Below, piece after piece: positions 1,868-31,563 of a stretch of DNA of 32,000 bases. Under the pieces are notes generated by a model. That model had not been told where the DNA came from. It did no database searches and worked only from the letters and a program-made list of their open reading frames with translations. Within the stretch, counting starts at the first letter, position 1, and each line of letters opens with the position of its first letter. The translations under genes were made by a program, and so were the position numbers. Source of the stretch: Okeania sp. SIO2C9 (GTDB lineage: Bacteria > Cyanobacteriota > Cyanobacteriia > Cyanobacteriales > Microcoleaceae); NCBI RefSeq assembly GCF_010672455.1, contig NZ_JAAHGO010000007.1, positions 306,659 through 338,658 on the forward strand, in the 5' to 3' direction.

Positions 1868-2532
1868 TTAGTATCTTTCTAAAGAGGGGAAAGCAAAAGG
1901 CAGAATGATTAAAAAAGAGTTGGAAAAAGTATCTTTTAATAACTGGAATTAGTATAAAATTTAAACTCCACTATACAGTAGATAAATTATATTATCGGGA
2001 ATTCAACAAAGCAAAAATGAACATTTATCAAAAATCATTCAAGCTAATTTTAGCGGGAAATACAAACATTCCTGCAATGATTAACGCTATTATTGGAGCT
2101 ACCCTTCAAGCACGAAGTGATACTAAAAATAGTGATTTAACTTTTCGTCAAGTACACATTTTTCATTCTGAACAATCATTACAAGCTTTGACAACTTCAG
2201 TAACTTGGCAAGAAGCTCTAAGCAACTATAAAATTTCTTCAACAAGTTTAGTTCATCATGTCACAAAAATAGAAGATTCTAATATTGATAGATTTAGGGA
2301 TCTTGTAGAGCAACTACGAAAAAATTTAACCCTTTTGATAACCCACAAAACTATATTGACTTGACAGGTGGTATTTCATCTCTTAAGTCTATACTTGCTG
2401 TTTTTGCTTATGTACTTGATATAGAAAATATTTATTCGTTGGAAATAGATTTCTCTAAATATACAGTTATTAGAAATATTAGAAAAAAGCCAGCTAGTCT
2501 TTTTTCTCATGATTTAGAAAAAGCAGGTGTAA

Positions 2533-2770
2533 GTATGGTTTACTGATTAAATATAAAAGCACTGACATATAAAGGTTTTAGCATTTTTTAGTTAAAAAAA
2601 GTCTAAGCTTTTAGGTCGCTTAGGTTCAAAAAATTAACATTTTAGGCAACAGTTGTGCAGAAAAATCAAGGGACTATTCTTCCTCCTAGCTCCTATATAA
2701 TTCCCCTAACTCCTAACTCCTAACTCCTGACTCCTACCCTCACCCATAAGACTTTTTGAGCAAACCCTAA
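2533..2770 (+). mobile_element. MITE family 1 copy inserted in the CARF-HEPN-mCpol-like gene, internal (CTCCTAA)n
   Basis: GTATGGTTTACTGATTAAAT (degenerate left TIR) ... TTGAGCAAACCCTAA. Deleting exactly 2533-2770 (238 bp) joins the flanking frames in phase (...EKAGV-NIKYRKFPP...). Confidence 0.75.
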
Positions 2771-3780
2771 ATATAAAATATCGCAAATTTCCGCCGATAA
2801 GGGAGTTTGATAATTTCGGAAAATTAAATTACACAGAAGTTTTACGCCATCGCTCAAATATTAACTATCTTGTAAATTGCCTAACAAATTTATTACCTTC
2901 TGGATTTGATATTGAACATTTACGAGAATCACTTTTATCTGGAGTAAATTCTTGTCTAATTGGCGAAGTAACTGAAGAAACCTATAGTGATCGTCATTCT
3001 ATTTTTTCTTCCTCTGCTGGAGTTGAAGAAGTCGCAAATATCATTTTAACGATTATAAAAAGTGCTGATTTGGAAAACAAAACACTAGGAAAAAAGTTAG
3101 ATGAAGTGCGGGATGTTTTTTCTCAAAATCCAAAATACTTCGTTAAGACTGAAACATTAGAATATATCACTAGACTAATCACCTCCGTACGAAATGATAT
3201 TGCTCATCCTTCTTCAGAAAATAGTTATTCAAAGGATATAATAGCTATTCAATCTCGCTTGTCTTCTCAATTAGCATTTGCATTTATACAATTTACGACT
3301 AAAACACTAAGTTCTTTTCTAGATAAAAATGGTCAACTTGTAAATGTTCAAATTCTAGAAACCCCAGCAGATAAAAATCAGACAATTTTTTATTTCGGGT
3401 TCGATGGTGATTCTACTGACTACTATTTAGAAATGGCGTTTGAAAAATCAAATGAAGACGAAGTAAGACAACGAAGTCAGATATTACATGAAGTTATTGG
3501 GGAGTTGAAAAAGTTAATCTACAAAGCAACAAAAGATAACAAAAGTGTACTTTTTGCAGAAGGAGACAATATTCTATTTAAAGCATCTTATCAGGCAATA
3601 TCATTTCTCTGTAACAATGCGCTTAATAATTGTTGCTCAGACCTTATTAAACGGACTATTCTAATCTTTGATATTAAGTGCAACTTCATGGATAAATGGT
3701 ATAAGTTTACTAAACAATTTACAGAGAATTTACAAAGAGAGAACTGGATTAACTGGCACTATAGGATATGTTCATTAATG

Positions 3781-3925
3781 GATAATTGATAATGGATAAT
3801 TGATAATTACCTCTGGTTAAAACCGCTCTTGATTGAATATAAGGAATATTGTCTTTTTTTTCCTCTTAAAAGGGGAGGCTTTAAACCAGAATTATTTAAT
3901 TATTAATTATTAATTATTCGGTAAA
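3781..3925 (+). mobile_element. MITE family 2 copy (AT-rich heptamer array + ATTACCTCT ... CCTTAAAAGGGGAGGC ... TTCGGTAAA), short variant
   Basis: (GATAATT)n followed by ATTACCTCTGGTTAAAACC...CCTCTTAAAAGGGGAGGCTTTAAACC...TTCGGTAAA. It is homologous to the copies at 6284, 20352, 21160 and 31358, and in reverse to those at 11705 and 14804. Confidence 0.7.
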
Positions 3926-4157
3926 ACATTACCTGAAGTTGCTTTAGCAATGCGTCTATCTAAAGCTAAAGGTGGAGGTAAAATTATGGGTATAGCTTTA
4001 AAAAATTAGAAATAGAGAATTAGCAAAAATTAATTACAGTCTAAAGTTTTCTAATTAATCTAATGTCAAGTAGCGAGTGTATTGTAATTCAAAATTTTGA
4101 CATTTTTATCTAACTATTTCCTATATAACAATCCTAAATAGGTTGTGAAAAATTGAA

Positions 4158-4402
4158 TTAGGGCTTCTTGATTAAATATCAAAGCATTTATAGACAAAGA
4201 TTTGAGAATTTTTAGGTCGAAAAAAGTGCGCTTGTTTCAGTCTAAAATGCTCAAAAAATTAGGATTTTGGGAGGATTATGGCAGAAAAGTCAAGGTACGA
4301 TTCTTCTGACTACTTCTTCTATAATTCCCATTCCTCCTGACTTCACCGATTCTGGATTCTGGCTCCTACCCTTACCAAAAAACTTTATTCAGCAAACCCT
4401 AA
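4158..4402 (+). mobile_element. MITE family 1 copy, internal (GATTCTG)2
   Basis: TTAGGGCTTCTTGATTAAAT ... TTCAGCAAACCCTAA. Confidence 0.8.
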
Positions 4403-6127: not shown

Positions 6128-6283
6128 AAACAGCATTGAAGAAGGCAGAAGGCAGAAGGCAAAATTGCTTAAGACAGAGAATTTTTTTTCCTACTGTGCC
6201 CTGCTGTAGTGAAAGCCTTAAAGCTAATATTAAAATATAGATAATGATGAAACTAATTCATTTATCTCCGTCGAGCTACGTTC

Positions 6284-6413
6284 AATAATGAATAATTAAT
6301 AATGAATAATTAATAATTACCTCTCCTTGAAAAGAAGAGGATTGACTCAAAAGAAAATTTTTATTTATTATCCCCTTAAAAGGGGAGGCGCATACCCACA
6401 ATTTTTCGGTAAA
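6284..6413 (+). mobile_element. MITE family 2 copy, short variant
   Basis: (AATAATG/AATAATT)n then ATTACCTCTCCTTGAAAAGAAGAGGATTGAC...CCCCTTAAAAGGGGAGGCGCATACCCACAATTTTTCGGTAAA. Confidence 0.75.
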
Positions 6414-7175: not shown

Positions 7176-8684
7176 TTAACAAACATAATTAATTCTATGA
7201 GCAATAACACAATCTCGTCCCTGTTCTTTTGCTTGATAAAGTGCCTGATCGGCATCTATTAATAATGTACGAGCAGATAATTGTAACGTAGGAATTACGC
7301 TACTTACTCCTAAACTTACAGTTACATAAGGACTTACTTTTGAACAAGCATGAGGTATTTCAAGCCTTTTGATTTCTCTCCTAATTAATTCTGCTCTTCG
7401 TAAAGCTTCCTCAATATTTGTATTTGGTAATATAACTCCAAATTCTTCGCCACCATAACGACAGACTAAATCTGTAGAAAATTTAGCTACCTTGCTAATA
7501 GCTTGAGCAACTTTTTTGAGGCATTGGTCTCCCTCTGGATGCCCATAACAATCATTATAATATTTGAAATAATCCACATCACAAAGGATGAGAGATAAAT
7601 ATTTTTTTTCTTGTCTAAGTTGCTCCCATTTTTGATGAAAATATTCATCAAATGTACGACGATTAGCTAGAGAAGTTAAACTATCAAAACTGGCAATTCG
7701 TTTTAAATCTTGGTTTGCTTTTTTAAGAGCTATCTCAGATTTTTTCCGTTGAATTAATCCACCTAACTGAGTTGCCACAGCATTAACTAACTGTATAGAA
7801 TTTTGATCTAATGTTTGAGAAAATTTCTGGAAAAATACTAAGATAGCTAAAACCTGTTGCTCTAGAATAATCGGTATTCCTAAAGCAGATTTAATACCTA
7901 TTTTTTCAGCAATTTGAAAACCAATCAAAACCGATTCTTTTTCCAGATAAATATCTTTGACCCATTCTGTTTGCTGAGAATTCCACACCCTTTGTAGTAA
8001 GCTTTGTTGAGAGTTAAAGGTAATAATCTGATGCTGTTGTCGAAATTTTAGAGCTGCGGGTAAAGTACCATTATTACTATTACTAGAATACCATCCTCTA
8101 CTAAATTTGAGCATTGTAGCTTCTGGGTCAGGAATCCATGCTTCTCCAAAATCCCAATTCATTGTTTGACAAACTTCTGCTAAAGTTAATTCTAATGCTG
8201 ATTCAATATCAGATGCTTCACTAATAGCATGAGTCACTTTTAATAATAGTTGTAATAAAGCATTTTGTTGTTGTAATTGCTGCTGTAGCGATCGAAGACG
8301 TAATTGGTTTTCAATTCTGGCTAAAATTTCAATTAATTCAAATGGTTTTGTAATATAATCTACTCCACCCACAGTAAAAGCTTTAACTTTATCCATCGCT
8401 CTATCCAAAGCAGAGATAAAAACTATAGGGATATTAGCAGTTTGTTTATCTATCTTGAGACATTCACAAATTTGATAGCCATCCATTTCTGGCATTTTAA
8501 CTTCTAATAAAATCAGGTCTGGCAGATCAAAATAAATATTTTCTAGAGCTTCTTTTCCACTGGTGGCAATTTGCACTTTATACCCTTGTACAGATAACAA
8601 CTCAGTCAACAGCTTTAAACTTTTAGGATTATCGTTAATAATTAAGATACTTTCTCTAAGTATAGAATTTTGTTGTTGATACAT
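7176..8684 (-). CDS. Response regulator receiver - GAF - GGDEF diguanylate cyclase
   Basis: N-terminal REC region (ILIINDNPKS...DLILLEVKMPEMDGY...PIVFISA...ITKPF), a coiled-coil linker, a central GAF-like region, and a C-terminal GGDEF domain (DSLTSLANRR...DVDYFKYYNDCYGHPEGD...YGGEEFGVILP...ADQALYQAKEQGRD). Confidence 0.85.
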   Translation of the reverse strand: MYQQQNSILRESILIINDNPKSLKLLTELLSVQGYKVQIATSGKEALENIYFDLPDLILLEVKMPEMDGYQICECLKIDKQTANIPIVFISALDRAMDKVKAFTVGGVDYITKPFELIEILARIENQLRLRSLQQQLQQQNALLQLLLKVTHAISEASDIESALELTLAEVCQTMNWDFGEAWIPDPEATMLKFSRGWYSSNSNNGTLPAALKFRQQHQIITFNSQQSLLQRVWNSQQTEWVKDIYLEKESVLIGFQIAEKIGIKSALGIPIILEQQVLAILVFFQKFSQTLDQNSIQLVNAVATQLGGLIQRKKSEIALKKANQDLKRIASFDSLTSLANRRTFDEYFHQKWEQLRQEKKYLSLILCDVDYFKYYNDCYGHPEGDQCLKKVAQAISKVAKFSTDLVCRYGGEEFGVILPNTNIEEALRRAELIRREIKRLEIPHACSKVSPYVTVSLGVSSVIPTLQLSARTLLIDADQALYQAKEQGRDCVIAHRINYVC

Positions 8685-12140: not shown

Positions 12141-13274
12141 ATGAAATTTAACCGTCGTTATTTCCTAATTTCTCTCGGCAGTGCATTAGGATTAGCTTTT
12201 AATTCTTGCAAAAATTTCCAGCAAACCCAGACTACAAACGCCGAAAATTTTAACTCTCAAATTCCCGCAAATCAGACTATTTCTCCCTCATAAATATCAA
12301 CTCCATCAACACCAGCTCCTCCAGGAATGTTTGCACCAAAACGAGGAGATATTCGACTCGTAGTTATCAGTGATTTAAACAGTAGTTATGGCTCCACAAC
12401 TTACCAACCACAAGTAGAAAAAACTATTCCTTTAATACCTGAATGGCAACCAGATTTCGTGCTTTGTGCAGGTGATACGATCGCCGGACAAAAACAGTCA
12501 CTTACTGAAGAAAATATTCAAGCTATGTGGGATGGTTTTGACCGTTATATTGCCACACGATTACGTCAAAGAAAACAACCTTTTGCTATTACTATTGGCA
12601 ATCATGATGCTTCAGGTTATTTCAAAAAATCTGGGGATGGATATAAATATGAAAAAGAGCGCAGACAAGCACAACTTTATTGGAGCAAACATCAAAATGA
12701 TTTAAACATAAATTTTCTAGAAGCAGATGGATTTCCTTTTTATTACAGCTTTCTCCATAAAGAAATTTTTTATTTAATTTGGGATGCTTCTATGCTTCGG
12801 ATTCCTAAACAACAATTAGAATGGGTAGAAAAAAGTCTCGCAAGTAGTCAAGCACAAACAGCAAAAATGCGAATTGTCATGGGGCATTTACCTTTTTATG
12901 CTGTTGCTCCTACTAAAAATAAAATGGGTGATGTTTTAGCGAAAGCTGATGAGTTACGAACTATGCTAGAAAAGTATAATGTTCACCTATATATTAGCGG
13001 TCATCATCATGCTTATTTTCCTGGTTATAAAGGTAATTTGAAGTTGCTTTATTCTGGTGCTTTAGGTAGCGGTCCGCGTACTTTAATTGGTAGTAAGTTA
13101 TCTCCCAGAAATACTTTGACAGTTGTTGATATTAATCTAGAGCAAAATAAGAGTTTTTACACAACCTATGACATGAATACTTTAGCAGTGGTTAATCCAC
13201 AGGAGTTACCAGAAAAAATTACAGGTTTAAATGGTTGGGTTTTACGAGAAAAAGAAGTAATGTTGCCTAGTTAA
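12141..13274 (+). pseudogene. Calcineurin-like metallophosphoesterase; Tat/lipoprotein signal peptide separated from the catalytic domain by an in-frame TAA
   Basis: ATG at 12141 encodes MKFNRRYFLISLGSALGLAFNSC (twin-Arg plus lipobox Cys). TAA at 12291-12293 is in the same frame as ORF 12327-13274. That ORF has GDTIAG, GNHD, GHLPFY and SGHHH motifs. Confidence 0.75.
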
Positions 13275-14215
13275 AAAAATTGGGATAATCTGACATACTG
13301 TCTATCGAGGTAATTTAAAATTACTTGATTCTAGAGCTTTAGGTGGGGTCCTGCTGTTGATATTAATTTAGAGGAAAACAAGAGTTTTTATGCTACCTAT
13401 GATCTGAAGACTTTAGTAGTGGTTAACCTACAGAAATTACCAGAAAAAATTACAGGTTTAAATGGTTGGGTTTTGCCGGAAAAAGAAACAATGTTGCCTA
13501 GTTAGAAAAAATCAGGAGAATCTAAACACACTGTCTATCGAGGTAATTTAAATTACTTACTCTGGTGTTTCAGATAGGAGTCTGCATAATTTAATTAGTA
13601 CTAACTTATCTCCCAGAAATACTTTAACAGTTCTTGATATTAATTTATGGCAAAACAAGAGTTTCTACATAACAGGTTCCGAACATTTTAGCAGCGGTTA
13701 ACCCACAGGAGTTACCAGAAAAAATTACAGGTTTAAATGGTTGGGTTTTACGGGAAAAATCAGCAATGTTGCCTAGTTAGAAAAAATCAGGAAAATCTAA
13801 CACACTGTCTATCGAGGTAATTTAAAATTACTTGTTCTAGAGCTTCAGGTAGAAGTCTGCATAATTTAATTAGTACTAACTTATCTCCCAGAAATACTTT
13901 GACAGTTATTGATATTAATCTAGAGCAAACCCAGAGTTTCTACACAACAGGTTCTGGAGACTTTAGCAGTGGTTAACCTACAGGAGTTATCAGAAAAAAT
14001 TACAGGTTTAAATGGTTGGGTCTTGCGAGAAAAATAAACAATGTTGCCTAGTTAGAAAAAATCAGGAAAATCTAAACACACTGTCTATCGAGGTAATTTA
14101 AATTACTTGCTCTGGTGCTTCAGGTAGGATTCTGCGTAATTTAATTAGCACTAACTTATCTCCCAGAAATACTTTAACAGTTCTTGATATTAATTTAGGG
14201 CAAAACAAGAGTTTT
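13031..14215 (+). repeat. Tandem array of about 275-bp units copying the last ~75 codons plus 3' flank of the metallophosphoesterase gene
   Basis: The anchor AGGTAATTT recurs at 13031, 13308, 13541, 13815 and 14091. The anchor ACAGGTTTAAATGG recurs at 13221, 13452, 13727 and 14002. Copies carry substitutions, indels and frameshifts. The last unit is cut by inserted elements at 14216. Its remainder is at about 15040-15097 and 15426-15520. Confidence 0.9.
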
Positions 14216-14803: not shown

Positions 14804-14990
14804 TTACCGAATTATTAATAATTAATAATTAATAATTAAATAATTATGGTTTAAAGCCTCCCCTTTTAAGGGGAAAAAAGCGGTCGAGGGATGGCGAGGT
14901 CTCGGAGCCATATCCAATCGACTCCTGTGAAGAAATCAGATCTCCTTATATTCAATCAAGAGCGGTTTTAACCAGAGGTAATTATCAATT
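14804..14990 (-). mobile_element. MITE family 2 copy, long variant, reverse orientation
   Basis: TTACCGAATTATTAATAATT...TTTAAAGCCTCCCCTTTTAAGGGG...GGATGGCGAGGTCTCGGAGCCATATCCAATCGACTCC...ACCAGAGGTAATTATC. Confidence 0.75.
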
Positions 14991-15185
14991 AATGAACTTC
15001 TAACTTCTGCCTTCTGCCTTCTTCAATAACTGTTAAAACTACCTATGAGCAGTAGTTAATTCACAGGAATTACCAAAAAAAATTACAGGTTTAAATATAG
15101 TAATCCTAAATTGGTTGTGAAAATTTTTATAATAGTTAATTTGAACTGAAAACATTAGTAAATTCTAACTCCTGACTCCTGACTC

Positions 15186-15370
15186 GTAAGCATTCAGCCG
15201 TCAGCTATCAGCTATCAGCTATTGCTTTTAGTCTAGGATCAAAGCAATATTTAATTGTCTTACTACAAAAGTTGACTCCTTTACCCTTAAAGTCAGTTGT
15301 TAATTTAAATACTGTCCTTAAGGAGACATTCTTGTTGCTGATAGCTGACAGCTAATAGCTGAATGCTTAC
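15186..15370. mobile_element. MITE family 4 copy inserted in a (CTGACTC)n STRR array
   Basis: GTAAGCATTCAGCCGTCAGCTATCAGC ... GCTGACAGCTAATAGCTGAATGCTTAC. It is flanked on both sides by CTCCTGACTCCTGACTC repeats. Confidence 0.75.
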
Positions 15371-15533
15371 CCTGACTCCTGACTCCTAACTCCTAACTGC
15401 CACCAAAATATTACAACTTAAATAGGATTGCTATAGTTAGGTTTTGCGGAAAAAAGAAACAATGTTGTCTAATTAACAAAAATCAGGATAATCTGACATA
15501 CTGTCTGTTGTAAATCATTTTTGGCAATCTATT

Positions 15534-17993: not shown

Positions 17994-18584
17994 ATGATTA
18001 ACCCCTTAGAAATAGCCAAATATTTCATTATGCGGGCTTATGAAGATGGTAGAGAAGCTGAAATAACCAATATGAAAGTACAAAAACTTCTCTACTATAG
18101 CCAATGCTTATATTTAGCTCTTAATGATGAACCTTTATTCGCCGATGAAATACAAGCTTGGCGATCTGGTCCTGTTTGTCCTCCTGCTTATAAATTTTAC
18201 AGTAAATTTGAAGCCGAACAATTACCTATTCCAATTCAGGAAAATATGGCAAATTTAACCTCAGAAATCAAGCATATTTTAGAGGAAGTCTGGCAATATT
18301 TTGGCGAATATGATGCTTACGACTTAAGTGACTTAACACACTCAGAATCTCCTTGGAAAAAAGCCAGAAAAGATTTACCTAGTGATGCAAATTCAGACGA
18401 ACCTATACTATTAGAAGATATGCGTTTATTAGGAGAAGAAAAACTTTTAGAAATTGAGAAAGAACATCCTCACTACACATCCATTGTTTCTTATGTTTTA
18501 AACACAGCAATAGAATCTAAGGAAGAACCAGAATATATTCAGCAAGGAGAAGTAAATGACTGGCTCAAATCTCTTCTTGATTAA
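17994..18584 (+). CDS. Panacea-domain (DUF4065, SocA-like) antitoxin
   Basis: ITNMKVQKLLYYSQCLYLALNDEPLFADEIQAWRSGPVCPPAYKFY matches the KLxKLLYy...W..GPV..vY signature of DUF4065. The acidic C-terminal half and the 29-nt overlap with the next ORF fit a type II toxin-antitoxin operon. Confidence 0.75.
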   Translation: MINPLEIAKYFIMRAYEDGREAEITNMKVQKLLYYSQCLYLALNDEPLFADEIQAWRSGPVCPPAYKFYSKFEAEQLPIPIQENMANLTSEIKHILEEVWQYFGEYDAYDLSDLTHSESPWKKARKDLPSDANSDEPILLEDMRLLGEEKLLEIEKEHPHYTSIVSYVLNTAIESKEEPEYIQQGEVNDWLKSLLD

Positions 18585-18990
18585 GAAGAATACTAACTTT
18601 GAAAACAGTTTTAAAAAGTTAGTGAAAACCTATAAATCTAAGTCTGAAAAACAGAAGTTTACTCAGGATATTAGTATATACCTCAATAAACTAATCATTG
18701 ACCCTTATCCTCCTCAAGCAAGGGCTGAACCTTTACCAAAAGGTCTTGAATTACCTGATGAATGTCAGTTTTATAAGTTACTTTTAACTATTGGTAAAGG
18801 TACATCAGGAAAAATCAGATTAATGTATTTAGTTTACGAGATGAAAAGAGTAATTAATCCTTTATGGATTTATAATCATCAACAATTTGAAAAACGACCT
18901 CCTGATCGAGATATTAAAGATGTTATTCAAGAAACTTTTGAGGAAAAATCTATTGACAGAGAAACTACTAAAAATGAAATAGTTGCTTGA
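18556..18990 (+). CDS. Putative toxin, RelE/ParE-superfamily-like
   Basis: AAGGAG lies 8 nt upstream of the ATG. The pattern FENSFKKLVK...IYLNKLIIDPYPP...EPLPKGL...FYKLLLTIGKGTSGKIRLMYLVYEMKRVINPLWIYNH follows the RelE/ParE layout (F..lkkL, dP, yK.rl...g.yRl.Y.v......l.i.h). Confidence 0.55.
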   Translation: MTGSNLFLIKKNTNFENSFKKLVKTYKSKSEKQKFTQDISIYLNKLIIDPYPPQARAEPLPKGLELPDECQFYKLLLTIGKGTSGKIRLMYLVYEMKRVINPLWIYNHQQFEKRPPDRDIKDVIQETFEEKSIDRETTKNEIVA

Positions 18991-19014
18991 CTATTTTTGC
19001 TAAAAGTATTACTT

Positions 19015-20357
19015 ATGAAACCATTAATATTAGATATTTTTTCCGGTGCAGGCGGTTTTAGTCTTGGTTTTAAATGGGCAGGTTGTCAAATTATTGGTGC
19101 TATAGAAATAGATAAATGGGCATCAGAAACTTTTGCTTATAATCATCCAGATGCAGTTGTTATCAATCAAGATATTACGAATATTACTAATAAGGATATA
19201 GCAGGGATTTGGAGTAATAATAAACCACAAATTGTGATAGGAGGTCCCCCTTGTCAAGGATATTCTATTTGTAATAAAAATTCTGGAGATCCTAAAGACC
19301 CTAGAAATAATCTTTTTAGAGAATTAATCAGAATAGCTGTAGTTTTTGAGCCAGAAATATTAATTATGGAAAATGTGCCTAACCTGATAAAAATTAGGAC
19401 TCATTCTCAAACCAAAGTTATTGACATTATTGAAGAGGAGTTTAATAAGATTGGGTATCACGTCTACATAAAAATATTGGAAGCTACAGCATACGGCGTA
19501 CCTCAAATCAGAAAACGTTTATTTATTGTTGCTTCAAAACGGGAACTAGAAAATCCTTTTCCCTTGCCAACTCATGGAATATTAACCAATCAGCAAATGT
19601 CTTTATTTGGAGAAAATTTAAAGTTCTGTCCGACATTATGGGATGCTATTTCTGACTTACCGACCTTGGAAGCTGGTGAAGGAAAAGAAGAGTCAAATTA
19701 TTCCAAACAACCGTCGAATGAATATCAAAAATTGTTGAGAAATGGCAATAAAATTCTGTTTAATCACAAAGCAATGAATCACACTAAAAGAATGGTAGAA
19801 AGATTTGCCACAATGAGTTGGGGAAATTCTGGAAAAGATGCACCAAAACATTTACAACCGCGACAAAGAAACTCTACAAAAATATCTAAAAAAATCTACG
19901 ACCAAAATAATAGAAGACTCCATCCAGATAAACCATGCCATACAATTCCAGCATCATTTTATGCTAATTTTGTTCATCCTTATCAACATAGAAATTTCAC
20001 AGCTAGAGAAGGTGCAAGAATACAATCATTTCCAGATAGTTTGAAATTCATGGGTAAACCAACAGTTGTTAGTCTTAAAGAAGGAAGAAGGAAGAAAGAA
20101 GAAGGAAGAAGGAAGGAAGGAAGGAAGGAAGGAAGGAAGGAAGAAAAAGTGGATGGGGACTCAAACCCCAACCAATTGTAAGCACCCCCGTTTACCGTGG
20201 GGTATTAAACCCAAAAGAAAAAGATGAGCTACTATTGAGAGAAGGTCGTTTAGCAGAAAAACATTTATGTCAATACAATCAAATTGGAAACGCCGTTCCT
20301 CCTTTGTTAGCTAAAGCTATTGCCGATAATATATTAAAACAGTTTTCAATAATTTAG
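19015..20357 (+). pseudogene. C5 cytosine DNA methyltransferase (Dcm type) split before motif X by a repeat element
   Basis: Motifs I LDIFSGAGGFSLGF, IV GGPPCQGYS, VI ENVPNL, VIII QIRKRLFIVA and IX REGARIQSFPD are in the frame of 19015. Motif X (QYNQIGNAVPPLLAKAIA, 20271-20357) is in another frame, after an insert of about 150 bp made of (GAAGGAA)n plus a GC-rich core. Confidence 0.8.
20063..20218. mobile_element. Repeat element family 3 copy inside the methyltransferase gene
   Basis: (GAAGGAA/GGAA)n ... AAAAGTGGATGGGGACTCAAACCCCAACCAATTGTAAGCACCCCCGTTTACCGTGGGGTATTAAACCCAAAAGAAAAAGAT. Related copies lie at 11408-11523 and, inverted, at about 14335-14450. Boundaries are approximate. Confidence 0.55.
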
Positions 20358-20479
20358 AATTTAGAATGCGCGAATTTAGAATTACCTCTCCTTGAAAACG
20401 GATAGGATTGACGAACAGGAAAATTTTTATTTATTATCCCCTTAAAAGGGAAGGCTTTAAACAACAATCTTTCGGTAAA
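20352..20479 (+). mobile_element. MITE family 2 copy, short variant, between the M and R genes
   Basis: (AATTTAG)n then ATTACCTCTCCTTGAAAACGGATAGGATTGAC...CCCCTTAAAAGGGAAGGCTTTAAAC...TTCGGTAAA. It supplies the false N-terminus of ORF 20408-21166. Confidence 0.75.
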
Positions 20480-20494
20480 ATAGAGCTAAATAAG

Positions 20495-21484
20495 ATGTAT
20501 GTTTATGGTCATAATTTAGAGCAAAAGGAAAATCATAAAACGAAATATATAGACGAAGATTATCGGAGATATTTGAGAGAAATAAGAGAAAAATATAATG
20601 AGTGGAAATTGGCTGATGAAGGGCTAATTGCTCCATCAATTGAAACAACAAACCAAGATAGCGAATTATTGATAAAGCGAGTAGAATTTTTGAATAAATA
20701 CAAAGATTTTCTAGAACAACAACACTATGCTGAAAAATTTGATTCTCGTTCAAATCTCCATTCATCTGTCTTGGAAGAATTTATGTATTACCTTTTCAAA
20801 GATTTAGTTAGTGAATTTTCATCACAAGCTTTAATTGGTAAGTCTCGTACTTTCAAAGATATATTTTTTCGGTCTGAAAATTATCAAGATATGCTCAATT
20901 ATCCTCATGCTTTAATTGAGTTGAAAGATAATGATTTTGCCATAGGAGTGAGAATTCATGCCCAAATGAATTGTCAGGGTTCTCAAGAATTAGAAAGTCA
21001 TATTTGGGATGTACCTGCTGTAGTTATAGAATGTAAAACTTATTTGGATAAAACTATGCTTCAAGACGCAGCAACAGCAGCAGAACAACTTAAGCATAGA
21101 AACTCTAATGCCATTTATATTTTAGTTGCAGAATGGCTAAAATTAACAGATGCCTTCAATAATTAATAATTAATAATTAATAATTACCTCTTCTTTTCAA
21201 GGAGAGGATTGACTAAAAGGAAAATTTTTTATTTTTTATCCTTTAAAGGAGAGGCTTTAAACCTTAATTATTAGGTAAATTTACGAAAATTCAAAATCGA
21301 CCAAATATATGTATTAAGAAAACAAAAGAATACGGATAGAGAATTCCGATATCAGAAAGGGTATATTAAAAATCCTATATATGTAGATGTGGTAGAACAT
21401 TTATTTGTTAATATTCGAGATTATTTAACCTCTGATTGGGAGGGTGGTATTAATTTTGGTTTGAAGCGTGGTTATTTAATTTAG
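20495..21484 (+). pseudogene. Type II restriction endonuclease (PD-(D/E)XK, ...D-x(n)-ECK) truncated by a MITE
   Basis: It lies downstream of the methyltransferase. It contains IELKDNDFAIG...DVPAVVIECKTYLDKTMLQDAATAAEQLK. A MITE at 21160-21279 introduces TAA at 21164-21166. The same frame resumes at 21275 (VNLRKFKIDQIYVLRKQKNTDREFRYQKGYIKNPIYVDVVEHLF...GLKRGYLI, TAG at 21482-21484). Confidence 0.6.
21160..21279 (+). mobile_element. MITE family 2 copy, short variant, inside the restriction endonuclease gene
   Basis: (AATAATT)n then ATTACCTCTTCTTTTCAAGGAGAGGATTGAC...CCTTTAAAGGAGAGGCTTTAAACC...TTAGGTAAA. Confidence 0.75.
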
Positions 21485-25538: not shown

Positions 25539-28500
25539 ATGAACCATGCACCCATCTATAAAATTTATCAGATTCTCATAGCTGTTCCCCTAACAGGACT
25601 TTGGATATTGGATACTGCTGCCCTCCTACCATTCCATGACAAGGAAAATAATGGTAGATTAAGAATGATTTCATGGAAAATTTTGTCCGCTAAAATCGCA
25701 TCAGCTCAAACATCAACTCAACCAATAGTTCCCGAAGAAAACTCAACCAATACAGTAGTAACTCCGGTAATACCATCCCCAGATTCTTCCCAAACTCGCT
25801 TTGATATTACAGGTGGGAAGCAATCAAAAGATAATACTAATCTTTTCCATAGCTTCGAGAGATTTAATTTGGGAGAAAACCAAATTGTTAACTTTATCTC
25901 TAACCCAAATATCAAAAATATTCTGACTCGTGTCACTGGTGGAGATGCTTCTGTAATTAATGGTCTAATTCAGGTAACAGGGGGCAATTCCAACTTACTG
26001 ATTATGAACTCTGCGGGTATAATTTTTGGTGCAAATGCTAGATTGGATGTACCTGCATCTTTTGTCGTGACTACTGGTTCAGGTATTGGTTTTGACTCTG
26101 GTTGGTTCAATAGCATAGGTGAAAATAACTACGATATTTTAACAGGAAATCCTAGTGCTTTTTCTTTCCCGATGACGAGTCCTGGAGTCATTTTAAATGA
26201 AGGAGAGCTAACTGTTGAAGCAGGAGAAAGTATTATTTTATTGGGGGGTACAATTATTAATACGGGTAAAATTTCTGCACCAGGTGGTGAAATTACGATC
26301 TCTACAGTTCCTGGAGAAAATTTAGTCCGTATTAGTCAAGAAGGACGTTTATTAAATTTAGAAATAGCGACAGAGGATGGAGGAATTTCTAATGATTTAC
26401 CAGAAGAATTACACAGTTTAAATCCCTTATCTATACCAGAGCTTTTAACAGGTAATAGTGAAGTGATGGAAATGGCTACTGGAGTTAGAGTTAATGATAA
26501 TAATGAAGTGGTTTTGACAGGTTCTAATCAAGTAATTCCTACAGATTTAGGTACAACGATTGTATCTGGTTCTCTTGATATTTCTTGGGCAGAAAATTCT
26601 GAATTGGCAAATACAAGTAGAATCAATATTTTTGGAGAAAAAGTAGGATTATTTAATGCCAAGCTTAATGCTTCTGGTCTCTATGGTAGTGGCAATATTA
26701 GAATTGGTGGAGATTCTCAAGGTTTAGGAACAGCTCCTCGTGCTACTCGTACTTATGTAGATGAAAATACAGAAATATTTACTACCTCTTTTAGGGATGA
26801 GGGTGGAAATATAGTTATTTGGAGTGATGAAGAAACTAGCTTTTTTGGCAAAATAGAAGCTATTGGTCGGATTGAGGAACAGTCTATATCGGCAGAACAA
26901 AATTCCAGTAAAAATCTAGTAGAAGTTTCTAGTCAAGGAAATTTAATTTTTGATGGTACTGTTAATTTAGGTTCTCCAGATGTGTTGGGCAGTTTATCAT
27001 TTAAGGCTGAAAATATTAATATTGTAGATACAAATATTGAGATAGCAGATAATCCTTTAAGAGGTGAAACGGCAATAGAATCTCAAATATCAAAATCATC
27101 AATAGAAAGCATATCAGATAGTACAAATATTACTTTTCAAGCGTCTGATAATATTACTATCAACAATTTATCTGAAACTCAATTAAGCTTTGCTCAGACA
27201 AAAGGTGAAATCTCATTTGTCGCAGATAGTGACGAAAATGGTTTGGGGTCTTTGACAATAGACTCAGAAAATACTATCAATACTCAAGGAGCAGCAGTTA
27301 ATATTTCTGGCACGACGATAAATACTGGAGATATTAATACAGAAGGAGGAGAACTTAATCTCACCAGTAGTCAAGGTTTTGTGATGACTAATAACTTATC
27401 TACTACCAACTCAAATATGACAGTAGAAAGCAATGGTGGGAATATTGATATTACAGCACAGGGAGATATTACTACAGGGGAAATTGATGCGAGTGGAGAC
27501 TCTAGGGGTGGGAATATCACTATGAATGCTGCTACTAATATTGATACAGAAAGCATTAATGCTGAAGGTCAACAAAGTGGTGGGAATATTGATATTAGAG
27601 CACAGGGAGATATTACTACAGGAGAAATTGATGCGAGTGGAGACTCTAGGGGTGGGAATATTACTATAAATGCTACTACTGATATTGATACAGAAAGCAT
27701 TCATGCTGAAGGTAGGCAAAGTGGTGGGAATATTGATATTAGAGCTGGAAATACTCTAAACTTGCGAGGAATATCAACCTCAAGCGGTAGTCGAGAAACT
27801 GGTAACATTAGTATTACTGGAAATGAAATCAACCTTTTAGGTGGAGAAAACAGTGTCAGTAGTAATGGGAGACTCATCTTACAACCAGCATCAGAAAATC
27901 AAAATATTACTCTGGGAGGATTTGAAAATATAGAAGGGACAGACGGCAATTTGCCTCTACACCTGACAACAGGAGATTTGGTAACTTTGGCAAATGGTTT
28001 TGAGTCTGTTACTATCGGAAAATCTGAAAACTCTGGCAATATTACTATTGCTTCTACAGAAAGCAGCAATAACAATGGAGTTGTATTCAATGACCCCACA
28101 ACTATTCAAGCAGAAACAATTACAGGTACAGGTACAATAACTGGGGTAGATAATGCTCAAATTACTATAAATGCTAATAGTGATATTTCCACTGGCAATA
28201 TTTCCACATCCACAGGTATTAGTATTACCAGCATTCAAGGCAATGTTAAGACTGGAGATGTGACTGCAAATATATCAGATAATAGTATTGGCAATATTGA
28301 TATTGCTAGTAGTGGTTCTATCGAAACGGGAAAACTAACCACCACAAGAACAACAGCAGGAGGAAATATTAATTTACAAGCAGGCGATCGTATAACTATA
28401 GGTAGAATAAATTCTAGCGCTACACCAGGAAATGCAGGAGAAGTTAAACTGAATGCGGAAAACGCTATTGAAGTCATATCTATACAAGCAGAAGGGGGAA

Positions 28501-30707
28501 ATAGTGGAGGTAATGTAGAAATTACTACAGGTGATACTCTCAGGATAAGAGGTACTTTTTTAGACCAAAATCAGAATATTGCTAGTATTTCTACCGCAGG
28601 AGAGGTAGTGGGGGGAAATATTGCTATTAGTACTGGAAATACACCTTTTATCGTTGGAGATGCTACAACTAATGGTTCTGTAGGAGCAATAACAGATGGA
28701 AAATCAACAGTTTCACCCGATCGCTCTCTACCTAGTAGTTTTCAACTCAAAGAAGTAGAGAACTCTCAACCACAAAATTCTGACACTACTGAAACCACAA
28801 CGGAATCAGAAAGTCAAGAAAATCAACCTCACTCAGAAGAATCAACTCCTCAAAATGTCACTCAACCAGAATCGACAGAATCTAGTAATTCTGAGGAAAA
28901 TCAAACTACTACCATTACCGAAACTCAAATAGAATTAGTTGAGGAGCCAAAAAATATAGAGGAACCGCAAACTCAAATTCCCCCTGAAGTAGATAACGAG
29001 GAACCCTCAAACACAGATCAAGATATACAGATAGTATCTCAAAACCCCGAATCAAACTCACAAATTTTAGATAATTCTGAACCTACTGCCCCTATTGCAG
29101 AAAACATTGCATCCTCAATGAGTAGTTCAGAAGAACCTACGACCCCTATTGCAGAAAACATTGCATCCTCAATGAGTAGTTCAGAAGAACAAATTATCCC
29201 ATTAGTTGTGGAAAATCAAAATCAAAATCAAAATCAAAATCAAAATCAAACTACATTGGAATTTGACCAACCGAATAACTCTCAACTTGTTGTCGAAAAT
29301 GTGGAGACAAATATTCTTGTAGAAGATACTAATTCCAGTTCAATTGCATCAGTTTTAGAACAAACTGTTGCTATAGAAAATCCCGTCCAAGGTAAGTCCT
29401 CTCAGAAACAAACTCCAACTATAGTCGTAGAAGAAAATATGACTACCACTGCTTCCGAAATTTCTCGCAACGATAATTACAATCAAGTTAGTTTAACTGA
29501 TACCCTATCGCAAATAGAGTTAAACAGAGGCAGAGAATTCGCGGGTTATTTAGGAAAAAATATTACTAAAAAAACTGTCACAGCAGCAAATATCCGAAAT
29601 ACTCTCAGTAGCGTTGAAAAAATAGGCATCAGACCAGCAATTATATATGTATCTGCACAACCCAATAATTTAGAACTGCAATTGTTTTTGCCAAACGGTA
29701 AACCTATCGTCAGAAGTAGTGGGCAAACAAGAGATGAAGTGATTGAGGTTGCCAAAAAATTTACAAATCAGATTAGGACTCCCAGTCAATTAAATTCTGA
29801 TAATTATTTACCAAATGCTCAAAAATTACATCAATGGTTAATTGCACCAATTGCTGAAGAATTGGCAAATCATAATATTAATACGATCATTTTTTCGATG
29901 GATAGCGGTTTGCGAACTCTTCCCATAGCCGCTCTACATGATGGTCAACAATTCCTGGTCGAAAAATATAGTTTGGGATTAATTCCTAGTTTTACTTTAA
30001 CTGATACAACGTATGTTGGATTAAATGGTTCTCAAGTTTTGGCAATGGGAGCATCTGAATTTCCTGGTAATACCGAGCAAACTCCTCTGCCAGCAGTACC
30101 TGTAGAACTTAAAAGCATCGTGAATAATCTTTGGCCTGGTAAATCTTTTTTGAATCAAGGATTTACTCTCGAAAATTTAAAGCAGCAAAGTAGCAAAGAA
30201 AAATTCAAAATTATTCATTTAGCTACTCATGGAGAATTTCATCCAGGGGGTGCTGACAATTCTTATATTCAATTCTGGGATACTAAGTTACGCTTAAATG
30301 AATTACGCCAGTTACGTTTGTATAATACACAGGTAGAGTTATTAGTTTTGAGTGCTTGTACTACTGCAGTCGGAGATGAAGAAGCTGAGTTAGGTTTTGC
30401 TGGGTTAGCAGTGCAAGCGGGAGTCAAGTCTGCTTTGGCAAGTCTTTGGTACGTTAGTGATACTGGTACATTAGCTTTAATGACTGAGTTTTATCAGAGT
30501 TTATCTAACAGACCAATTAAAGCAGCAGCATTACGACAGGCCCAGTTAGCAATGTTACGGGGAGAGTTGCATTTACAAGATGGTCATATACTCCGAAATG
30601 GTAATAAACATCTACCTCTACCACGGGAGTTAGCTAGAGGAGGTAGAAGGGATTTATCTCATCCTTATTATTGGGCAGCATTTACGATGATTGGTTCGCC
30701 ATGGTAA
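25539..30707 (+). CDS. Giant secreted protein: filamentous-haemagglutinin-type TPS domain - beta-helix repeats - low-complexity acidic/polar linker - C-terminal CHAT (caspase-like) protease domain
   Basis: TPS region: FDITGGKQSKDNTNLFHSFERFNLGENQIVNF...ILTRVTGGDASVINGLIQV...NLLIMNSAGIIFGANARLDV. Repetitive GGNI(D/T)I-type beta-helix turns follow. The linker is E/S/T/Q/N-rich. The CHAT dyad is IIHLATHGEF (His codon 30228-30230) and LLVLSACTTAVG (Cys codon 30357-30359). The start codon (25539) is uncertain. Confidence 0.85.
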   Translation: MNHAPIYKIYQILIAVPLTGLWILDTAALLPFHDKENNGRLRMISWKILSAKIASAQTSTQPIVPEENSTNTVVTPVIPSPDSSQTRFDITGGKQSKDNTNLFHSFERFNLGENQIVNFISNPNIKNILTRVTGGDASVINGLIQVTGGNSNLLIMNSAGIIFGANARLDVPASFVVTTGSGIGFDSGWFNSIGENNYDILTGNPSAFSFPMTSPGVILNEGELTVEAGESIILLGGTIINTGKISAPGGEITISTVPGENLVRISQEGRLLNLEIATEDGGISNDLPEELHSLNPLSIPELLTGNSEVMEMATGVRVNDNNEVVLTGSNQVIPTDLGTTIVSGSLDISWAENSELANTSRINIFGEKVGLFNAKLNASGLYGSGNIRIGGDSQGLGTAPRATRTYVDENTEIFTTSFRDEGGNIVIWSDEETSFFGKIEAIGRIEEQSISAEQNSSKNLVEVSSQGNLIFDGTVNLGSPDVLGSLSFKAENINIVDTNIEIADNPLRGETAIESQISKSSIESISDSTNITFQASDNITINNLSETQLSFAQTKGEISFVADSDENGLGSLTIDSENTINTQGAAVNISGTTINTGDINTEGGELNLTSSQGFVMTNNLSTTNSNMTVESNGGNIDITAQGDITTGEIDASGDSRGGNITMNAATNIDTESINAEGQQSGGNIDIRAQGDITTGEIDASGDSRGGNITINATTDIDTESIHAEGRQSGGNIDIRAGNTLNLRGISTSSGSRETGNISITGNEINLLGGENSVSSNGRLILQPASENQNITLGGFENIEGTDGNLPLHLTTGDLVTLANGFESVTIGKSENSGNITIASTESSNNNGVVFNDPTTIQAETITGTGTITGVDNAQITINANSDISTGNISTSTGISITSIQGNVKTGDVTANISDNSIGNIDIASSGSIETGKLTTTRTTAGGNINLQAGDRITIGRINSSATPGNAGEVKLNAENAIEVISIQAEGGNSGGNVEITTGDTLRIRGTFLDQNQNIASISTAGEVVGGNIAISTGNTPFIVGDATTNGSVGAITDGKSTVSPDRSLPSSFQLKEVENSQPQNSDTTETTTESESQENQPHSEESTPQNVTQPESTESSNSEENQTTTITETQIELVEEPKNIEEPQTQIPPEVDNEEPSNTDQDIQIVSQNPESNSQILDNSEPTAPIAENIASSMSSSEEPTTPIAENIASSMSSSEEQIIPLVVENQNQNQNQNQNQTTLEFDQPNNSQLVVENVETNILVEDTNSSSIASVLEQTVAIENPVQGKSSQKQTPTIVVEENMTTTASEISRNDNYNQVSLTDTLSQIELNRGREFAGYLGKNITKKTVTAANIRNTLSSVEKIGIRPAIIYVSAQPNNLELQLFLPNGKPIVRSSGQTRDEVIEVAKKFTNQIRTPSQLNSDNYLPNAQKLHQWLIAPIAEELANHNINTIIFSMDSGLRTLPIAALHDGQQFLVEKYSLGLIPSFTLTDTTYVGLNGSQVLAMGASEFPGNTEQTPLPAVPVELKSIVNNLWPGKSFLNQGFTLENLKQQSSKEKFKIIHLATHGEFHPGGADNSYIQFWDTKLRLNELRQLRLYNTQVELLVLSACTTAVGDEEAELGFAGLAVQAGVKSALASLWYVSDTGTLALMTEFYQSLSNRPIKAAALRQAQLAMLRGELHLQDGHILRNGNKHLPLPRELARGGRRDLSHPYYWAAFTMIGSPW

Positions 30708-31357
30708 AAGAAGGAAGAAGGAAGAAGGAAGAAGGAAAAATAGGGAAACAATTTATCGCTCCAACAGTTTCACAAGAAAAAATAGAAAGTTCAACTTTGC
30801 TCTCCTGCGATCGCTATTCAATACCGTTCTACATACCATCCAGGAATACCATAGTTCCATCCTCTCATAGTTTCAAAAGGGTCTGCTCTTGTTAGTCTCT
30901 GATCGTCAGACACAGCTACCAGAGGTTTTAAGTTATTGTTAATTTGTTGTTTTTCAGTTACGTTGTTCAAAGTATTTCGTGGGAGATTTTTTTCTTTCTC
31001 AATCATTTTTTTTGATTCAAATTGTTTGCTAATTTAACATTAACCTACTTATTAAATTAATCAATCCCTCTGGTCGTTAATCTCAATATTTCATTAAATA
31101 AATTTAAACTTTGTAATGTATGTTTAGGAATCCCGCGCTGTCTCGTAGAGCAGCGTCGGGAGGATGTCAAAAGAATGATTATTATTATGAGAAAAACATT
31201 GAATTTTTGAAAGGGATTATATCTTTTAAACCCTTACCCCACAATAGTTTTGAGGCGCTTGTCACCCCGTGAGGTTTCTAGGTGTCTTTTTCTCCCCCTA
31301 ACTCCACATTCCCCTCCAGGGAGGGGTTATATCAAATCCGTTTAATTCGGCACTTCA

Positions 31358-31563
31358 ACAATTAATAATGAATAATGAATAATGAATAATTACCTCTCTA
31401 TGAATTGAAGAGGATTGACAAATTCATGAAAATTTTTCTTCACAGGAGTCGATTGGATATGGCTCCGAGACCTCGCCATCCCACCCAACGGGGAAGCTGC
31501 GAAGATCGACCGCTTATTATCCCCTTAAAAGGGGAGGCGCATACCCACAATTTTTCGGTAAAA
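31358..31563 (+). mobile_element. MITE family 2 copy, long variant
   Basis: (AATAATG)n then ATTACCTCTCTATGAATTGAAGAGGATTGAC...GGAGTCGATTGGATATGGCTCCGAGACCTCGCCATCCCACCC...GATCGACCGC...CCCCTTAAAAGGGGAGGCGCATACCCACAATTTTTCGGTAAA. Confidence 0.8.

Follow-up and report, generated by a model that had tools for sequence, protein, structure and literature searches.

Positions 2017-4009 of a 32,000-nucleotide (nt) stretch of the genome of Okeania sp. SIO2C9 (this whole stretch is hereafter called the window) almost certainly hold a pseudogene of the CARF–HEPN–mCpol family. Intact members of this family carry a CARF sensor, a HEPN RNase and an mCpol nucleotide cyclase in a single open reading frame (ORF), an observation that bears out the one-chain architecture proposed in the original prediction, which had been made from the sequence without database searches. 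The window copy does not have the three domains in one uninterrupted frame. The possibility of three separate genes was considered and rejected, since every intact homologue is a single ORF. The architecture itself is already catalogued: it is described in the literature, has a dedicated hidden Markov model in PADLOC and is reflected in an NCBI protein name. The window copy is, thus, an additional, dead member of a catalogued but experimentally uncharacterised gene type.

The resemblance to the family is far beyond chance. A rough join of the ORF pieces matched the PADLOC profile PDLC01967 ('CARF_HEPN_mCpol') with E=1.3e-180 (599.7 bits), the best segment covering positions 1-421 of the 471 in the profile and another one the C-terminus. 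The joined pieces also matched the Pfam mCpol profile PF18182 (E=6.3e-19; 68.9 bits at a cut-off of 26.4) and were 83% identical to P0001, an intact 496-amino-acid (aa) protein. Profile searches had been proposed as a check at the outset; those with the PADLOC and Pfam mCpol profiles were significant, while the CARF profiles of Pfam and NCBIfam gave sub-threshold matches only and the NCBIfam mCpol profile scored 25.9, under its cut-off of 40.

The order of the pieces can be followed in a three-frame translation of positions 2017-4020. The frame starting at 2017 reads MNIYQ...EQLRK, and the next frame continues with NPFDNPQNYIDLTGGISSLKS...EKAGVS. The first frame resumes after 2772 with IKYRKFPP...SVRNDIAHP...FYFGFDGDSTDYY...VLFAEGDNILFKASYQA; the second part of mCpol is read in another frame, and the last part begins at 3919 and runs to the stop codon (Table 1). 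All the peptides quoted in the original prediction, i.e. NYIDLTGGISSLKS, SVRNDIAHP, FYFGFDGDSTDYY, VLFAEGDNILFKA, TGLTGTIGY (in another frame) and LSKAKGGGKIMGI, were located on the + strand in the frames assigned to them. The protein had been estimated at about 600 aa, which is too long: the repaired ORF, with three insertions removed and one nucleotide restored, has 499 codons, and intact homologues have 496-520 aa.

Lesions were mapped by global alignment to the intact syntenic orthologue of Okeania sp. SIO2B3 (locus L001:4682-6169; 496 codons, 94-96% identical), in which the empty sites of the insertions are visible. The window copy is broken in four places, by one frameshift and three insertions, and therefore cannot make the full protein, in agreement with the pseudogene status assigned to it earlier. 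The frameshift suspected in the A run at 2319-2324 proved to be a 1-nt deletion at the end of that run. Two miniature inverted-repeat transposable elements (MITEs) had been placed at 2533-2770 and 3781-3925; both elements are present (238 and 150 nt), at boundaries that had to be corrected to those given in Table 1. What had been described as frame breaks near 3600-3660 is in fact one 106-nt insertion with inverted repeats. A 9-nt in-frame insertion, at 2467-2475, had been overlooked.

Table 1. Coordinates of the pseudogene, its domains and its lesions in the window, and of three relatives that have lost the cyclase only
Feature	Position	Strand	Remarks
CARF–HEPN–mCpol pseudogene, whole	2017-4009	+	ATG at 2017, TAG at 4007-4009
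CARF domain, residues 1 to ~172	2017-2533	+	two frames because of the frameshift; IDLTGGISS ligand loop
Frameshift, 1-nt deletion at 2325/2326	2319-2326	+	codon 104, end of A6 run 2319-2324
D115 codon, family-invariant	2358-2360	+	in IDLTGGISS
In-frame insertion, 9 nt	2467-2475	+	3 additional aa in CARF surface segment
MITE-A insertion, 238 nt	2534-2771	+	between codons GVS and IKY, last CARF strand
HEPN domain, all-helical, residues ~180-350	2800-3310	+	R-N-D-I-A-H at 3190-3207, intact
mCpol palm, first part	3370-3596	+	Asp381 (FDGD) at 3403-3405 and Asp435 (AEGDN) at 3565-3567, both intact
MITE-C, third insertion, 106 nt	3597-3702	+	31-nt terminal inverted repeats 3598-3628 and 3672-3702
mCpol second part, SLLNNLQRIYKERTGLTGTIGY	3703-3768	+	different frame
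MITE-B insertion, 150 nt	3769-3918	+	between GY and GKTLPEV, codon 467
mCpol last helix and strand, GKTLPEVALAMRLSKAKGGGKIMGIALKN, with stop codon	3919-4009	+	
Cyclase-only truncation, locus L003	L003:10001-11622		MITE at codon 467
Cyclase-only truncation, locus L007	L007:10001-11490		2-nt insertion at ~codon 445
Cyclase-only truncation, locus L010	L010:2015-3508		stop at codon 356

The three insertions qualify as MITEs, with multiple copies seen for MITE-A and MITE-B only; these two elements are multi-copy both in the window and in other Okeania loci. MITE-A has five copies in the window, the ones outside the gene being at about 810-1037 (inverted), 1387-1627, 1629-1867 and 4169-4402. The pseudogene is thus nested among MITE-A copies, three of them upstream in intergenic sequence and one just downstream (810-1867 and 4155-4402). 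MITE-B is represented in the window by more than five copies or fragments, with family copies at about 6280-6413, 20345-20479, 21158-21279, 31354-31562 and 14817-14991 (inverted). Terminal inverted repeats were found in MITE-B as well as in the 106-nt element. The latter is single-copy in the window; one further copy was seen, an orthologous one in Okeania hirsuta.

Beyond these lesions, the repaired window copy departs from its family at 5 of the 107 columns that are highly conserved. Residues named here as conserved are invariant or present in at least 90% of the members in an alignment of 66 full-length homologues. Two of the substitutions, G386D in the FDGDxTG loop and Q156P, are unique to the window copy, fall at nearly invariant columns and are probably damaging. 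The ratio of non-synonymous to synonymous substitution rates (dN/dS) between the window copy and the intact copy is 0.42; the neighbouring gene gives 0.18, and a comparison of two other Okeania copies 0.21. The counts are small, and the pattern is consistent with relaxed constraint. One could argue that the pieces still function as smaller proteins or through recoding, in which case the locus would not be a pseudogene: an ORF of 239 aa survives at 3070-3789, every catalytic motif can still be read and just those five conserved columns are altered. We consider this very improbable. The CARF domain is split at codons 104 and 172 and the palm is cut at codons 445 and 467; none of the surviving ORFs contains a whole domain, and HEPN lacks a separate start codon in front of its initial helices. 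The raised dN/dS and the loss of a nearly invariant glycine speak against retained function too, as does the fact that relatives of the same clade bear additional, different lesions.

Decay of this gene is recurrent in the Okeania/Dapis clade. The copy of O. hirsuta (L015) has the same codon-104 deletion and, at the same site, the 106-nt element (95% identical), along with additional lesions of its own; since the deletion and the element are common to both copies, the pseudogene predates the split of the window and O. hirsuta lineages. In Okeania sp. SIO3B5 (L003) a MITE-B copy at L003:11401-11534 is the sole lesion, located at exactly the window site (GGATAT / G... / GGTAAA, codon 467). Because the MITE-B inserts of the window and of SIO3B5 are only ~70% similar internally and O. 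hirsuta has no MITE-B, the shared site points to separate insertion events at one favoured target, or else to conversion among copies of the MITE. In Okeania sp. KiyG1 (L018) and in Dapis (L002) the gene is disrupted in other ways, with two nonsense codons and the substitution G382C in the Dapis copy. Altogether 10 of the 27 retrieved loci are disrupted, although some of the cases in metagenome-assembled genomes (MAGs) may be sequencing errors. The case is an instance of defence genes being lost through MITEs in cyanobacteria of the Okeania type.

A search of 5.8 billion proteins yielded 81 homologues, several of which carry the NCBI name 'mCpol domain-containing protein'. The hosts are mostly filamentous cyanobacteria (Okeania, Coleofasciculus, Phormidesmis, Lyngbya, Microcoleus and Kamptonema), with other members in Chloroflexi/Anaerolineae, Nitrospirae and Candidatus Magnetobacterium. 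When 1.84 billion cluster representatives were searched exhaustively with a profile, only 68 matched at E<=1e-30, about 45 of them full length; the weaker matches were stand-alone mCpols of 110-150 aa. The family is real but rare. The search for intact orthologues in cyanobacteria, suggested along with the initial description, was successful and made a comparison of neighbourhoods possible: Okeania contigs align collinearly with the window at 94-98% identity, and intact single-ORF relatives include, besides the SIO2B3 copy, those at loci L004-L006, L008, L009 and L011-L014.

To examine the fold we used an AlphaFold2 model of P0001, the closest intact homologue, built with the 66-member alignment. 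The model, with a mean pLDDT (predicted local distance difference test score) of 84.8, has an alpha/beta Rossmann-like domain at residues 8-175 in which strands alternate with helices, an all-helical domain at residues 180-350 and a beta-alpha-beta-beta-alpha-beta palm at residues 375-494. A Foldseek search of this model against the PDB, the structural check that had been recommended, found Enterococcus italicus Csm6 (6TUG, E=9e-8) and also S. thermophilus Csm6' (8PE3), T. thermophilus Csm6 (8JBC) and Csx1-Crn2; each of these Csm6/Csx1 alignments extends over ~420 columns and spans CARF and HEPN. The palm matched the Panoptes mCpol OptS (9MNR, 9PD0 and 9NWN) with target-normalised TM-scores of 0.72-0.82. 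Further matches were to the CARF domain of Cad1, the Cas10/Csm1 palm (6O78 and 6O75) and DgcZ (4H54).

Each of the three domain calls of the original prediction is upheld by these matches together with residue conservation. In the CARF domain, identified structurally through Csm6 and Cad1 and supported also by the CARF models of PADLOC, the conserved residues are D115, G119 and S121, the window sequence being IDLTGGISS. In HEPN, for which Csm6 again provides the structural match, R310 and H315 are invariant among the 66 homologues and N311 is conserved in at least 90% of them. For mCpol, the Pfam and structural matches are joined by a sequence-profile match to OptS (9mnr, E=5.6e-6), and the conserved residues are D381, G382, D383, T385, G386, A432, G434, D435, N436, S464, I465, G466 and G468. 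The retention of D115, G119, S121, R310, H315, D381 and D435 indicates that selection within the family acts on each of the three activities.

The sequence AEGDN, found at the position of the GGDD motif, had been taken as a possible sign that the cyclase was degenerate or had drifted after inactivation. This interpretation was rejected. The segment FAEGDNILFK is kept family-wide, and in the profile alignment D381 and D435 fall on Asp6 and Asp57 of OptS, which have been defined experimentally as its two catalytic aspartates (PMC12657218). OptS has QAADG where the family has AEGDN, so that an active enzyme presents a single acidic residue at this position, and the Panoptes authors describe the GGDEF motif as 'nearly absent' from active mCpols. 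Given that the motif is family-wide and its Asp is aligned with Asp57, AEGDN is not a product of degeneration; it is a motif that the family conserves and that is presumably active. In a distant branch (L023-L027, 24-29% identity) the family reads A/S-G-D-D here.

The pseudogene is flanked in the window by genes for an ABC1 atypical kinase (C-terminal part, 15-800) and a DUF5009 membrane protein, and the intact copy of SIO2B3 sits between the same two neighbours. All-against-all BLAST of neighbours in the 27 loci revealed no conserved partner gene outside Okeania/Dapis synteny, and for this reason we regard the gene as a stand-alone module. No cas genes are present in the window, and a search of the window for a CRISPR-like array found none. 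The claim that there is no CRISPR-Cas nearby holds, therefore, for the window and for most loci, and it fails at the level of the family: a PADLOC scan of 123 neighbouring ORFs detected type III CRISPR-Cas genes within 5 kb in 4 of the 23 loci outside Okeania. In one of these, from Anaerolineae (L013:7123-16475), an intact, 58%-identical homologue is situated between cas1 and cas10-cmr3-cmr1-cmr4; in another the gene follows cmr1-cmr4-cmr6 (L023:5704-11527). In both it adjoins cas10-cmr genes and occupies the usual position of a csm6/csx1 accessory gene. The remaining two (L025, 2167-8703, and L027, 3208-11365) have cas10 within 5 kb.

Such associations, the placement in L013 among them, would fit a locus that is the leftover of a Csm6/Csx1-type accessory gene from a lost type III CRISPR-Cas system and not an autonomous module. 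This origin is quite unlikely, in our view. The window and all five Okeania/Dapis loci share housekeeping-type neighbours with no cas gene among them, no cas genes were found within 5 kb in the other 19 of the 23 loci, and the gene carries its own cyclase, so that Cas10 is not needed.

A second palm-domain cyclase, unrelated to the one discussed here, is encoded 3 kb downstream of the pseudogene: an ORF on the - strand (7176-8684) for a diguanylate cyclase of the response regulator-GAF-GGDEF type. The Okeania/Dapis loci L002, L015 and L018 have kept this gene, and at the corresponding place.

Judging from its conserved sequence, the intact protein would in all likelihood be a self-contained cyclic-nucleotide-controlled RNase. 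Two C-terminal palm domains would pair up, as may be expected because the active site of the solved mCpol, OptS, is built from two protomers. The pair would make cyclic (oligo)adenylate from ATP with the use of Asp381 and Asp435, a dimer of N-terminal CARF domains would bind the cyclic nucleotide, and this binding would control the Csm6-like HEPN RNase (R310, H315); domain homology is the ground for each of these steps. Indiscriminate RNA cleavage by HEPN would then arrest the infected cell. With maker, sensor and effector in one chain, the fusion is the simplest conceivable cyclic-oligonucleotide immune pathway.

In which direction the nucleotide acts is a question raised for mCpol fusions by the Panoptes papers of 2025-26; mCpol–HEPN fusions are mentioned there, with the choice between activating and inhibitory signalling left undecided (PMC12657218). 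By analogy with the characterised Csm6/Csx1 enzymes we slightly favour activation over a guard logic, though with a confidence that is evenly balanced. If activation applies, a gated cyclase would produce the ligand in cis, or Cas10 would supply and prime it in trans in those cases where there is a type III system. The fuller version of this idea, in which the fused mCpol is a gated cyclase that activates its own RNase and serves near type III loci as a feed-forward amplifier of the Cas10 signal, is offered tentatively, as somewhat short of an even prospect. If true, this would be the first mCpol that is inducible, and a single protein would make up a genuine cyclic-oligonucleotide immune pathway; the recurrent decay in Okeania/Dapis would reflect the cost or the redundancy of the module.

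The guard logic, also raised in the original prediction, would make the intact protein a fused, Panoptes-like sentinel: mCpol would constitutively produce a decoy nucleotide that keeps the CARF-controlled HEPN RNase off, and phage sponges or phosphodiesterases that deplete the nucleotide would release the RNase. We see this as possible but somewhat doubtful. In its favour, all experimentally studied mCpol systems are inhibitory, one of them with a CARF sensor (PMC12657218, PMC12657230, PMC13577387). The catalytic residues of mCpol are conserved and the cyclase has no obvious regulatory domain; a 1:1 fusion would allow every dimer to be filled with inhibitor of its own making; and the type III CRISPR-Cas system that adjoins some members could be the guarded system, as Panoptes likewise adjoins CBASS (the cyclic-oligonucleotide-based antiphage signalling system). 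On the other hand, the closest structural matches are ligand-activated Csm6 enzymes, and, to our knowledge, the characterised CARF–HEPN RNases are all activated by their ligand with none switched off, which favours activation over guarding. The location of the gene in L013 and L023, at the place of a csm6/csx1 accessory gene beside cas10-cmr genes, points towards activation as well.

Natural truncations bear on the same choice. In three loci (L003, L007 and L010; Table 1) a single lesion removes the cyclase only, and every conserved CARF and HEPN residue is kept. When mCpol loses its catalytic activity in Panoptes, the toxin is set free. Under guard logic these three copies would therefore be constitutively active toxins; such lesions should be lethal and the copies should not persist, which argues weakly against a strict guard. 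An additional argument of this kind, with the 106-nt element as the earliest lesion of the window lineage, was withdrawn, as O. hirsuta has the frameshift as well as the element.

Several considerations weigh against the activation we favour. Every characterised mCpol is constitutive and inhibitory, in type I Panoptes (PMC12657218, PMC12657230) as well as in type II with its CARF-TM effector (PMC13577387). Activation also needs a gate on the cyclase, because a constitutive cyclase combined with a ligand-activated RNase would be self-toxic. The argument from truncations is weak, since its basis is three copies from draft or MAG assemblies, and it presupposes that these copies are expressed; the stop in L010 could be a sequencing error, and the truncated proteins may simply be unstable. 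Finally, the window copy is dead and its function, therefore, is not directly readable from it. That control follows some scheme other than activation or guarding appears improbable.

Since a dead copy adds no function, it is the comparison across the family that supplies leads. These are the intact orthologues, e.g. those of Okeania sp. SIO2B3 and Microcoleus vaginatus HSN003 (L006:10001-11515), the natural cyclase-only truncations with their bearing on the sign of regulation, and the association of a minority of the family with type III CRISPR-Cas loci.

The window has several other features. At 18997-21279 there is a restriction-modification pair. The ORF for the C5 DNA methylase (18997-20181) appears to be complete; that for the Bpu10I-like endonuclease (20408-21166) has a MITE-B copy on either side (20357-20479 and 21158-21279) and is probably truncated, because only profile positions 4-135 of 218 were matched. 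A possible toxin-antitoxin pair consists of an ORF with a SocA/Panacea antitoxin domain (17994-18584) and a 144-aa ORF without a match in Pfam (18556-18990), which overlaps the end of the former. A tandem array at 13357-14214, which is not of the CRISPR type, consists of 3.1 copies of a 275-nt unit (88% identity); its start lies close to the 3' end of an ORF for a calcineurin-like phosphoesterase (12327-13274), and there are related copies from ~13049 and at 15041-15506. A 1722-aa ORF (25539-30707) combines an N-terminal two-partner secretion (TPS) domain with a C-terminal CHAT protease domain and has internal tandem duplications of 144 nt (27434-27745) and 54 nt (29079-29190).

Among known systems, the closest is the CARF–HEPN–mCpol family itself (PDLC01967), with which the repaired window copy agrees in domain order, length and motifs; the difference is that intact members are one ORF and the window copy is broken. 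The mCpol domain was defined by Burroughs et al. 2015, and the fusion to a Csx1-family RNase was listed as a 'potential' single-protein defence in the CARF classification of Makarova et al. 2020, both as they are cited in PMC13577387. Our literature search found no experimental study of the fusion, either biochemical or of phage defence, in keeping with the earlier statement that the architecture had been inferred only computationally.

Panoptes, in its type I (OptS/mCpol with 2TM-beta) and type II (mCpol with CARF-TM), has in common with the family an mCpol palm with both catalytic aspartates, and type II resembles it further in using CARF as the sensor for the mCpol product. Unlike Panoptes, the family unites cyclase, sensor and effector in one polypeptide, and its effector is a HEPN RNase that is soluble, where Panoptes has a membrane protein; the two-gene operon of Panoptes has no counterpart here, as the 27 loci contain no conserved partner gene. 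The Csm6/Csx1 accessory RNases of type III systems, which are the best structural matches, share CARF, HEPN and the R-N-x-x-x-H motif with the family, some members of which hold the accessory-gene position in type III loci. Their sequence identity to it is only 11-14%, however, and the family has the extra C-terminal cyclase domain; moreover, most of its loci have no nearby cas genes, and in the window neither a cas operon nor a CRISPR array adjoins the gene. The palm domains of Cas10 (Csm1/Cmr2) and of the GGDEF diguanylate cyclases share with mCpol the palm fold and the two-metal aspartates. In comparison with them, the mCpol of this family is a minimal single palm of ~125 aa with AEGDN instead of GGDD or GGDEF, and, in contrast to Cas10, it belongs to a protein that stands outside any RNA-guided complex.

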